Under the pieces are notes generated by a model that was given only the letters and a program-made list of their open reading frames with translations, ran no database searches and had not been told where the DNA came from. A DNA stretch of 391 bases, taken from Escherichia coli. GTDB taxonomy: Bacteria; Pseudomonadota; Gammaproteobacteria; Enterobacterales; Enterobacteriaceae. This document shows, one piece after another, positions 1 through 391 of this stretch. The translations under genes and the position numbers were made by a program. Position 1 is the stretch's first letter. Every line of letters starts with the position of its first letter. The stretch lies in the NCBI RefSeq assembly GCF_003334815.1, contig NZ_QOWO01000131.1. One strand, written 5' to 3'.

Positions 1-75
1 CGCGAGGCATCGTCTTAACGAGGCACCGAGGCGTCGCATTCTTCAGATGGTTCAACCCTTAAGTTAGCGCTTATG
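1..75. mobile_element. Terminus of an IS186-like insertion sequence (IS4 family); element body extends beyond the window start
   Basis: + strand 53..75 reads CAACCCTTAAGTTAGCGCTTATG, whose reverse complement CATAAGCGCTAACTTAAGGGTTG matches the IS186 terminal inverted repeat as I recall it. The adjacent flank (minus strand GGGGGTAAAACC) fits the G-run/A-T core/C-run targets IS186 prefers. The boundary at 75 is approximate to about 1 bp. Identification is from memory and was not searched. Confidence 0.6.
53..75. repeat. 23-bp terminal inverted repeat of the IS186-like element
   Basis: Sequence CAACCCTTAAGTTAGCGCTTATG ends at the junction with the toxin-side flank. The second copy of the inverted repeat would lie at the other end of the element, outside the window. 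Confidence 0.55.
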
Positions 76-96
76 GGTTTTACCCCCGCGTGGTGG

Positions 97-249
97 CTAC
101 TTCTTCGATTCGTAAGCGAGAACTGCCTTAAACTCCATACCACGTTCTCTGATACTCAACTCACACAACGAGTCGCCTACCATCAGCGTGAATCCCAGTA
201 CTGTAAAACACAGCACTATGATTGCCACAAGGGCATATTTTGTCAGCAT
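97..249 (-). CDS. hokE: Hok/Gef family type I toxin (HokE-like small membrane toxin), 50 aa
   Basis: Minus-strand ATG at 249..247 is preceded by GGAGG (260..256) with a 6-nt spacer; 50 sense codons run to TAG (99..97). Translation: [50 protein letters not shown]. It has an N-terminal hydrophobic transmembrane stretch ([19 protein letters not shown]), then the conserved D-S-L-C-E block and C-terminal A-Y-E-S motif typical of Hok/Gef toxins. Closest to E. coli HokE by recollection, but not identical to the sequence I remember, so the paralogue and strain are unverified. Confidence 0.9.
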
Positions 250-252
250 GTC

Positions 253-281
253 TTGCCTCCCTGCAAAGAAGAGACTAACAT
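253..281 (+). promoter_or_regulatory. Candidate sigma70 promoter for an antisense Sok-like RNA (-35 TTGCCT 253..258, 17-bp spacer, -10 TAACAT 276..281)
   Basis: Both hexamers match consensus 4/6 with optimal 17-bp spacing. The -35 overlaps the toxin RBS on the opposite strand, which is the arrangement I recall for the plasmid R1 sok promoter relative to the hok RBS. Predicted transcription start is near 288..289. Confidence 0.35.
256..260 (-). promoter_or_regulatory. Shine-Dalgarno sequence (GGAGG) for the hok-like toxin
   Basis: Minus-strand GGAGG lies 6 nt upstream of the toxin ATG (sequence gcagGGAGGcaagacATG). Confidence 0.7.
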
Positions 282-287
282 TCGAAT

Positions 288-391
288 TGTTTGGGTTCGA
301 ACGTAAGCCTCAGGTTGTACTGACCCCAAAAAGTTGGACAGTTAAACACGAGGCATATAGGTCTGATTCCGATATTCAATTGGAGTCAGAC
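288..391 (+). ncRNA. sokE: Candidate Sok-like antisense RNA (antitoxin), complementary to the toxin mRNA leader; 3' end not defined
   Basis: Inferred from the candidate promoter and hok/sok locus architecture. The transcript would be antisense to the toxin leader and could end at the 361..391 stem-loop, but no U-tract is visible because the window ends there. Extent is speculative. Confidence 0.25.
361..391. repeat. Inverted repeat forming a 10-bp stem with 11-nt loop (GTCTGATTCC / GGAGTCAGAC)
   Basis: 361..370 pairs with 382..391. On the + strand RNA there is one G-U wobble; on the minus-strand RNA one A-C mismatch. It lies in the toxin mRNA leader and the candidate antisense RNA region. 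The window ends at the stem, so downstream context is unseen. Confidence 0.6.

Follow-up and report, generated by a model that had tools for sequence, protein, structure and literature searches.

A probable remnant of the hok/sokX toxin-antitoxin locus between IS186 and IS150 ends beside cysH in Escherichia coli

The window, that is, the whole 391-nt stretch of DNA analysed here, is 100% identical to positions 2774120-2774510 of the E. coli B REL606 chromosome (NC_012967.1), and it is found at full length and at least 99% identity in 22 complete E. coli chromosomes, ATCC 8739 among them. According to the REL606 annotation, the gene order in this region is iap, a CRISPR array, an IS186/IS421 transposase, a Hok/Gef family protein, an IS150 transposase and cysH. 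In K-12, as in many further strains, the type I-E cas operon occupies the iap-cysH interval, and the hok/sokX locus is normally placed between cas3 and cysH. The features located in the window are listed below, where L001 denotes the extract of the REL606 locus and L003 the intact allele.

1..75, plus strand: right (transposase-distal) end of IS186, composed of a non-coding tail (1..52) and the 23-bp terminal inverted repeat (53..75).
76..85, strand-neutral: hok-side copy of the 10-bp IS186 target duplication, GGTTTTACCC; the second copy is missing here.
76..96, minus strand: residual hok 3' UTR of 21 nt; of the first hairpin past the stop it holds the 5' arm CGCGGGGG (83..90) and the greater part of the loop, as judged from the intact allele L003 and its fold.
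97..249, minus strand: toxin gene hok with an intact reading frame for 50 aa (WP_000956460.1, 'Hok/Gef family protein'); the TAG occupies 97..99.
243..315, minus strand: 3' part of a mok-like leader ORF that ends, across the hok ATG, in a TGA at 243..245 and whose start codon lies beyond IS150.
253..315, plus strand: remnant of the Sok (SokX) antisense gene, with the promoter-like hexamers TTGCCT (253..258), 17 nt, TAACAT (276..281) and an inferred +1 at 289; K-12 sokX (b4701) was mapped by sequence.
256..260, minus strand: Shine-Dalgarno sequence GGAGG of hok.
313..315, strand-neutral: GGT, the 3-bp target duplication of IS150 in one of its two copies (L001 6313-6315 and 7759-7761).
316..391, minus strand: right end of IS150, equal to the final 76 nt of K-12 IS150 in reverse complement; the end of transposase orfB (TAA, 342..344) falls within it.

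The first 75 nt of the window equal the last 75 nt of K-12 IS186B without a mismatch, which bears out the first-pass annotation in its recognition of the IS186 terminal inverted repeat at 53..75. At E = 1e-30 this 75-mer was located at 8421 sites across 2144 E. coli genomes, so that a chance match is excluded. The complete element is located at L001 4737..6075 and comprises 1339 bp with 0 mismatches to K-12 IS186B, with perfect 23-bp terminal inverted repeats CATAAGCGCTAACTTAAGGGTTG at both ends and an IS186/IS421 (InsL) transposase CDS (WP_001300563.1) at L001 4792..5904; both the body of the element and its transposase are therefore present upstream of position 1. The minus strand reads GGGGGTAAAACC followed across the junction by CATAAG, which is the G5-TAAAA-C2/3 motif that had been proposed. 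Read from the hok stop, the same strand runs TAG CCACCACGCGGGGGTAAAACC up to the junction and CATAAGCGC beyond it, and the earlier statement that only 21 native nucleotides (76..96) separate the toxin stop from the IS end is exact. The extended context also supplied the rest of the IS186 that had been anticipated, whereas the expected 10-13 bp target duplication at its far end was absent. At its far end the IS now borders on a CRISPR spacer, and the cas operon has been lost; this later rearrangement explains the missing duplication and leaves the identity of the element unaffected.

Membership of the 97..249 ORF in the Hok/Gef family is indicated by Pfam PF01848 (E = 3.5e-11); the NCBIfam Hok models match it as well, with scores under their curated cut-offs. 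The native DNA of the window is 100% identical to that of IS-free strains, and the hok ORF displays no decay. The native part as a whole (76..315) occurs as a single copy per genome in approximately 4186 of the 5426 complete E. coli genomes, always beside cysH, while K-12-like strains retain only the segment annotated in K-12 as the small RNA gene sokX, b4701. A survey from 2025 likewise places a hok gene and sokX next to cysH in most uropathogenic strains (PMC12736100). In a recent survey preprint on Hok, cysH, CRISPR and IS150 are not mentioned in a relevant sense. As a separate observation, the codon for Tyr46 of Hok lies in a TACG motif (window 111..114, minus strand; codon 46 TAC and the G of the next codon), a context that another preprint ties to TadA A-to-I editing and Tyr to Cys recoding in hok mRNAs (10.1101/2025.08.07.668861).

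The 5' side of the locus is independently broken by a second element, IS150 at 316..391, which the first-pass annotation overlooked. The complete IS150 (L001 6316..7758, 1443 bp) has 0 mismatches to the K-12 copy, and it carries imperfect TGTACTG... terminal repeats and a two-ORF transposase whose CDS is annotated with a programmed frameshift. It is inserted 66 nt upstream of the hok ATG, and the hok locus resumes toward cysH on its far side. The hok mRNA is split after approximately nt 76-79, and 1443 bp now separate the toxin ORF from its promoter, from the 5' pairing element and from the mok-like start. In the intact allele, a putative 34-aa mok-like ORF is located at L003 3168..3272 with its stop overlapping the hok ATG; in its place the window retains only a chimeric 28-aa ORF (243..329). 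Regarding the antisense gene, only nt 1-27 of the 59-nt K-12 sokX remain in the window (289..315), its terminator hairpin being split by IS150. The promoter-like hexamers of Sok were read by eye and are below the threshold of the promoter scan. For the intact allele, the Rfam model RF01794 ('sok', here aligned with the leader in hok sense) gives 113 bits over the full model; with the leader split by IS150, its score in the window drops to 41.6 bits, under the 59-bit gathering score, and the 5' half of the alignment falls within IS150. The Rfam matches to mir-101 and Ocean-VII (E 0.5-0.7), and those to ctRNA_p42d and RalA in the intact locus, were rejected as chance or low-score matches; the ctRNA_p42d match overlaps a terminator-like hairpin just 3' of cysH.

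Two further observations concern the IS150 end. The orfB stop (TAA, 342..344, minus strand) lies in the reading frame of the mok-remnant ORF (243..329), the end of which overlaps the hok ATG. Moreover, a terminator-like hairpin of 15 pairs followed by TTTAATTT extends on the plus strand from window 359..391 to L001 6393. This hairpin (359..393) faces incoming transcripts, and a truncated Sok starting at 289 could possibly form a chimera of about 110 nt antisense to the transposase 3' end.

The comparison with an insertion-free strain that the first-pass annotation had proposed was made with strain 120899, in which cas3, hok and cysH lie side by side without an IS and the native sequence is 100% identical to the window. 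It yields the intact 3' UTR, which reads CCACCACGCGGGGGTAAAACCCCGCGTACTGAATTGTGATGGTTTGGTCTCCTGCACCCTTTTTT after the TAG on the sense strand. Judged against this allele, the insertion point of IS186 is the loop of the hairpin CGCGGGGG-UAAAA-CCCCGCG right after the hok stop; the GC-rich target hairpin begins 7 nt past the stop. The RNA that was folded comprised 360 nt and started at GGGUGCUUGAGG, the first position of RF01794 on the intact allele. Its fold has an energy of -132.8 kcal/mol and a z-score of -5.15, and a fold-back is predicted in which nt 1-6 pair with 349-354 and nt 9-14 with 341-346, at a probability of about 1.0 and unchanged across four 3' ends. The pairing is likewise predicted for the O157 allele, with one G-C changed to G-U, and for K-12 hokE rebuilt without IS186 it is predicted at assumed lengths of 370-400 nt but not at 420-440 nt. 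Covariation lends the pairing little support, and it is to be read as a thermodynamic prediction. As IS186 is inserted after RNA nt 316, the predicted fold-back partner (341-354) and the T-run are cut off. The proposal that the insertion removes the 3' fold-back element is thus supported at the level of the predicted structure, since the putative partner lies beyond the insertion point. In the genome of the window the 5' (tac) and 3' (fbi) elements no longer face each other, the former being 1443 bp off and the latter deleted. For gef/hokC, it has been proposed that the IS186 downstream of the gene interrupts fbi, the sequence for fold-back inhibition (PMC3562002). It can also be observed that in IS-free strains the hok 3' UTR and T-run are only about 130 bp from the divergent cas3 start, with a very AT-rich spacer between them (L003 2827..3021); an IS186 at the hok site is consequently also upstream of cas3.

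The arrangement in REL606 can be placed in a series of strains. The intact order cas3-hok-cysH is represented by IS-free alleles, and strains 53 and 17-07187 display cas3-IS186-hok-cysH with the 10-bp duplication GGTTTTACCC on both sides of the element and cas3 intact. PEC1009 has the REL606-type junction of CRISPR, IS186 and hok without IS150, and REL606 carries both IS. In REL606 the far flank of IS186, ...GGTGGGGAAAAACCC, comes from a CRISPR spacer. The flanks GGGGAAAAACCC on the far side and GGTTTTACCCCC on the hok side do not form direct repeats, the far end being preceded by ...CCTGAACGGTGGGGAAAAACCC, which is 22 nt of the spacer directly after a CRISPR repeat (L001 4442..4736). Beside it the array leader is missing along with the entire type I-E cas operon, so that this IS186 marks the cas deletion of the E. 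coli B lineage.

Three steps may be distinguished from this series. During the first step, as strain comparison shows, IS186 entered the loop of the post-stop hairpin and created the 10-bp duplication GGTTTTACCC, parting the toxin ORF from the T-run and from the 3' segment predicted to pair with the 5' end of the mRNA. During the second step, which the flanks suggest, recombination with a second co-oriented IS186 in the CRISPR array would have removed the array leader together with every cas-E gene and the distal part of the hok 3' UTR, leaving one hybrid IS186 with unlike flanks. During the third step, which the comparison of alleles again shows, IS150 landed 66 nt before the hok ATG, duplicating 3 bp and cutting Sok after 27 nt. 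The REL606 spacer CCTGAACGGTGGGGAAAAACCC had no match, at up to 3 mismatches, in the array of one cas+ strain, strain 53; this search did not recover the double-IS186 intermediate that the second step would need, which counts against that step. Almendros et al. 2014 (PMC3903273) have described this locus with its hok sok system and an insertion of IS186, and have proposed that cas-E1 was removed by IS-IS recombination. In keeping with such a history, one array of BL21-AI is without the conserved leader and acquires no spacers (PMC3384332); we infer that it is the iap-side array. The cas deletion at IS186 is the reason why BL21 and REL606 are without cas genes and a leader at this array. [quoted passage not shown]

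Taken together, the window is very probably a 240-bp remnant of a chromosomal hok/sokX type I toxin-antitoxin locus in an E. coli B-type chromosome, flanked by the right ends of IS186 and IS150, an assessment that covers the whole explanation, including insertion history and silencing. The first-pass annotation had referred to a K-12 IS186 about 22 bp downstream of hokE, and IS186B is indeed found 21 nt past the hokE stop. The distance from stop to IS (21 nt) and the IS itself are equal in the two cases, and the K-12 HokE and window Hok proteins are 78% identical. That the present segment is this K-12-type hokE locus with its IS186B insertion has, however, practically no chance of being correct. 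K-12 hokE is flanked by ybdK and entD, whereas the window locus is flanked by iap-CRISPR and cysH; the window DNA is only about 87% identical to hokE loci; IS186 has the opposite orientation relative to hok; and REL606 possesses a separate hokE locus. The identification as hokE was rejected on sequence identity and on the context, which is iap-CRISPR...cysH and not entD-ybdK. Within the hok/sokX explanation, it should also be considered how the cas genes were lost, since a single IS186 might have made an adjacent deletion by intramolecular transposition into the spacer, and not by recombination between two copies. The spacer flank GGGGAAAAACCC fits the IS186 target type, and a second IS186 in that spacer was not found in the one strain searched. 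Both models yield an identical sequence, so the data cannot separate them. Against the single-copy route, the cut-and-paste transposition of the IS4 family, to which IS186 is assigned, does not readily produce one-ended adjacent deletions. Almendros et al. also favoured IS-IS recombination (PMC3903273), and the single-copy route is regarded as unlikely.

Regarding the state of the toxin gene, the ORF is intact yet would lack its own promoter, the translation-coupling ORF and fold-back control. To judge from the sequence, the hok locus in the window is most likely a silent relic, like K-12 hokA, hokC and hokE. Several points count against inactivation: the hok ORF is undecayed, with 100% identity to IS-free alleles; K-12 gef with its IS186 is still transcribed and regulated by antisense RNA (PMC3562002); and the 'hokED' array signal is higher in REL606 than in MG1655 (PMC3446290). 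These same points agree with the possibility that the insertions deregulate the toxin, read-through from IS150 giving a hok mRNA without the fold-back lock that is opposed only by a Sok that is truncated or chimeric. The transposase genes orfAB of IS150 are co-oriented with hok, and the orfB TAA (342..344) shares its frame with the 243..329 ORF. The terminator scan of the minus strand identified no terminator-like site between the orfB stop and hok, which is weak evidence, as is the promoter scan, where no outward promoter toward hok was found and the sole minus-strand promoter-like site lay inside the hok ORF. A constitutively translatable Hok should, however, be toxic, yet the arrangement is stable in 22 complete genomes; furthermore, when the chimeric RNA is folded, part of the hok Shine-Dalgarno region remains paired, and cross-hybridisation of the array with hokE is likely. 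Transcription of the IS150 transposase is also normally very low. Deregulation therefore appears improbable, and the silent relic is retained as the preferred reading. Still further from the likely course lies a joint proposal in which the post-stop and Sok terminator hairpins are sequence- or structure-specific landing pads for IS186 and IS150, with the rewired hok read through from IS150 and the Sok promoter firing a chimeric antisense into the transposase 3' end that stops at 359..393. It draws on the independent recurrence of insertions in hokA, hokC, hokE and hokX in both orientations, and if true it would couple the expression of toxin, antitoxin and transposase; as a whole it is very improbable.

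Comparison with known systems indicates that neither the phenomenon nor the arrangement at this locus is new, both having been published before. Pedersen and Gerdes reportedly treated K-12 hokE/IS186B and hokC (gef)/IS186A in 1999. As in these two K-12 copies, a 100% identical IS186 lies in the first GC-rich hairpin loop, 21-22 nt past the stop and in a G4-N6-C4 target, and the ORF is presumed to be cut off from the 3' fold-back element. The window locus is distinguished from them as a cysH-adjacent paralog with sokX as partner, by the additional presence of IS150, and by the hybrid flanks of its IS186, whereas the K-12 copies keep the 10-bp duplications GGAGTAATCC (hokE) and GGATCACTCC (hokC). 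The orientation of its IS186 is that of K-12 hokC and opposite to that of K-12 hokE. With K-12 hokA it shares an IS150 in the leader and Sok gene, approximately 20-21 nt 3' of AAAAGCCCC, that splits mok and sok (annotated there as the pseudogenes mokA and sokA), but the hokA IS150 is oppositely oriented to hok, has no evident 3-bp duplication and is not accompanied by IS186. The hok mRNA of plasmid R1 hok/sok has a 5'-3' fold-back architecture. The intact allele resembles this system in its Hok/Gef toxin, a leader ORF ending at the hok start, an antisense Sok, a post-stop hairpin and predicted 5'-3' fold-back pairing; unlike it, the locus is chromosomal and has a far shorter leader ORF (34 aa), and what the window contains is a dismembered system.

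Further parallels are cases D-G of Almendros et al. 2014 (PMC3903273), where hok sok lies by cysH, IS186 marks a GC-rich boundary, another IS occupies the cysH side, and the missing leader and cas-E1 genes are ascribed to IS-IS recombination. The second element is named there 'ISu, uncharacterized', whereas the cysH-side element here is IS150; the two are probably the same element. A 2001 report on IS186 (saiSree) reportedly concerns recurrent insertion at a G-run/C-run target in both orientations in the E. coli B lineage; there the insertion affects a promoter, whereas in the window it affects the 3' end of an mRNA. The IS186/hok finding on its own matters little, being correct but ordinary, as this type of disruption has been documented before.

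The preferred target type of IS186, G4-N6-C4, in which a G-run and a C-run enclose a short AT-rich spacer, was read from five sites. The empty hokX site, as the hok site beside cysH is termed here, is GGGGTTTTACCCCC (plus strand, L003), the hokE and hokC targets are GGGGAGTAATCCCC and GGGGATCACTCCCC, and the target in the spacer flank is GGGGAAAAACCC. In K-12, IS186B is located 21 nt past the hokE stop with the duplication GGAGTAATCC, and IS186A 22 nt past the hokC stop with GGATCACTCC. Both orientations of IS186 occur at hokE (K-12 and REL606 vs RM9513) and at hokX (strain 53 vs ARL09/232). Of the 4223 genomes carrying this part of hok, 799 gave a match to a junction query for an IS186 end at the hokX site, and the IS150 junction at the hokX leader site was found in 115 genomes. 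IS150 occupies the homologous leader position in hokX (REL606), hokE (RM9513 and REL606) and hokA (K-12), approximately 20 nt 3' of the conserved AAAAGCCCC in K-12 hokA (L012 634), RM9513 hokE (L002 ~4323) and REL606 hokE (L014 3543..5446). The ranking of matches suggests that about 800 further genomes carry an IS186-hok-IS150 sandwich at hokE. In the literature on the long-term evolution experiment, hokB/sokB is listed as a recurrent target. That IS186 and IS150 recur at corresponding sites of four hok paralogs illustrates how a preference for certain targets shapes the decay of toxin-antitoxin loci; the elements of this picture have been published before. Two details of the hokE copies may be added. 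In RM9513 the two copies of the hokE duplication differ at one base, GGATTGCTCC vs GGATTACTCC (L002 2727..2736 and 4076..4085), which suggests a later mutation or an exchange between IS186 copies. In REL606, the IS150 of hokE is itself broken by an IS1.
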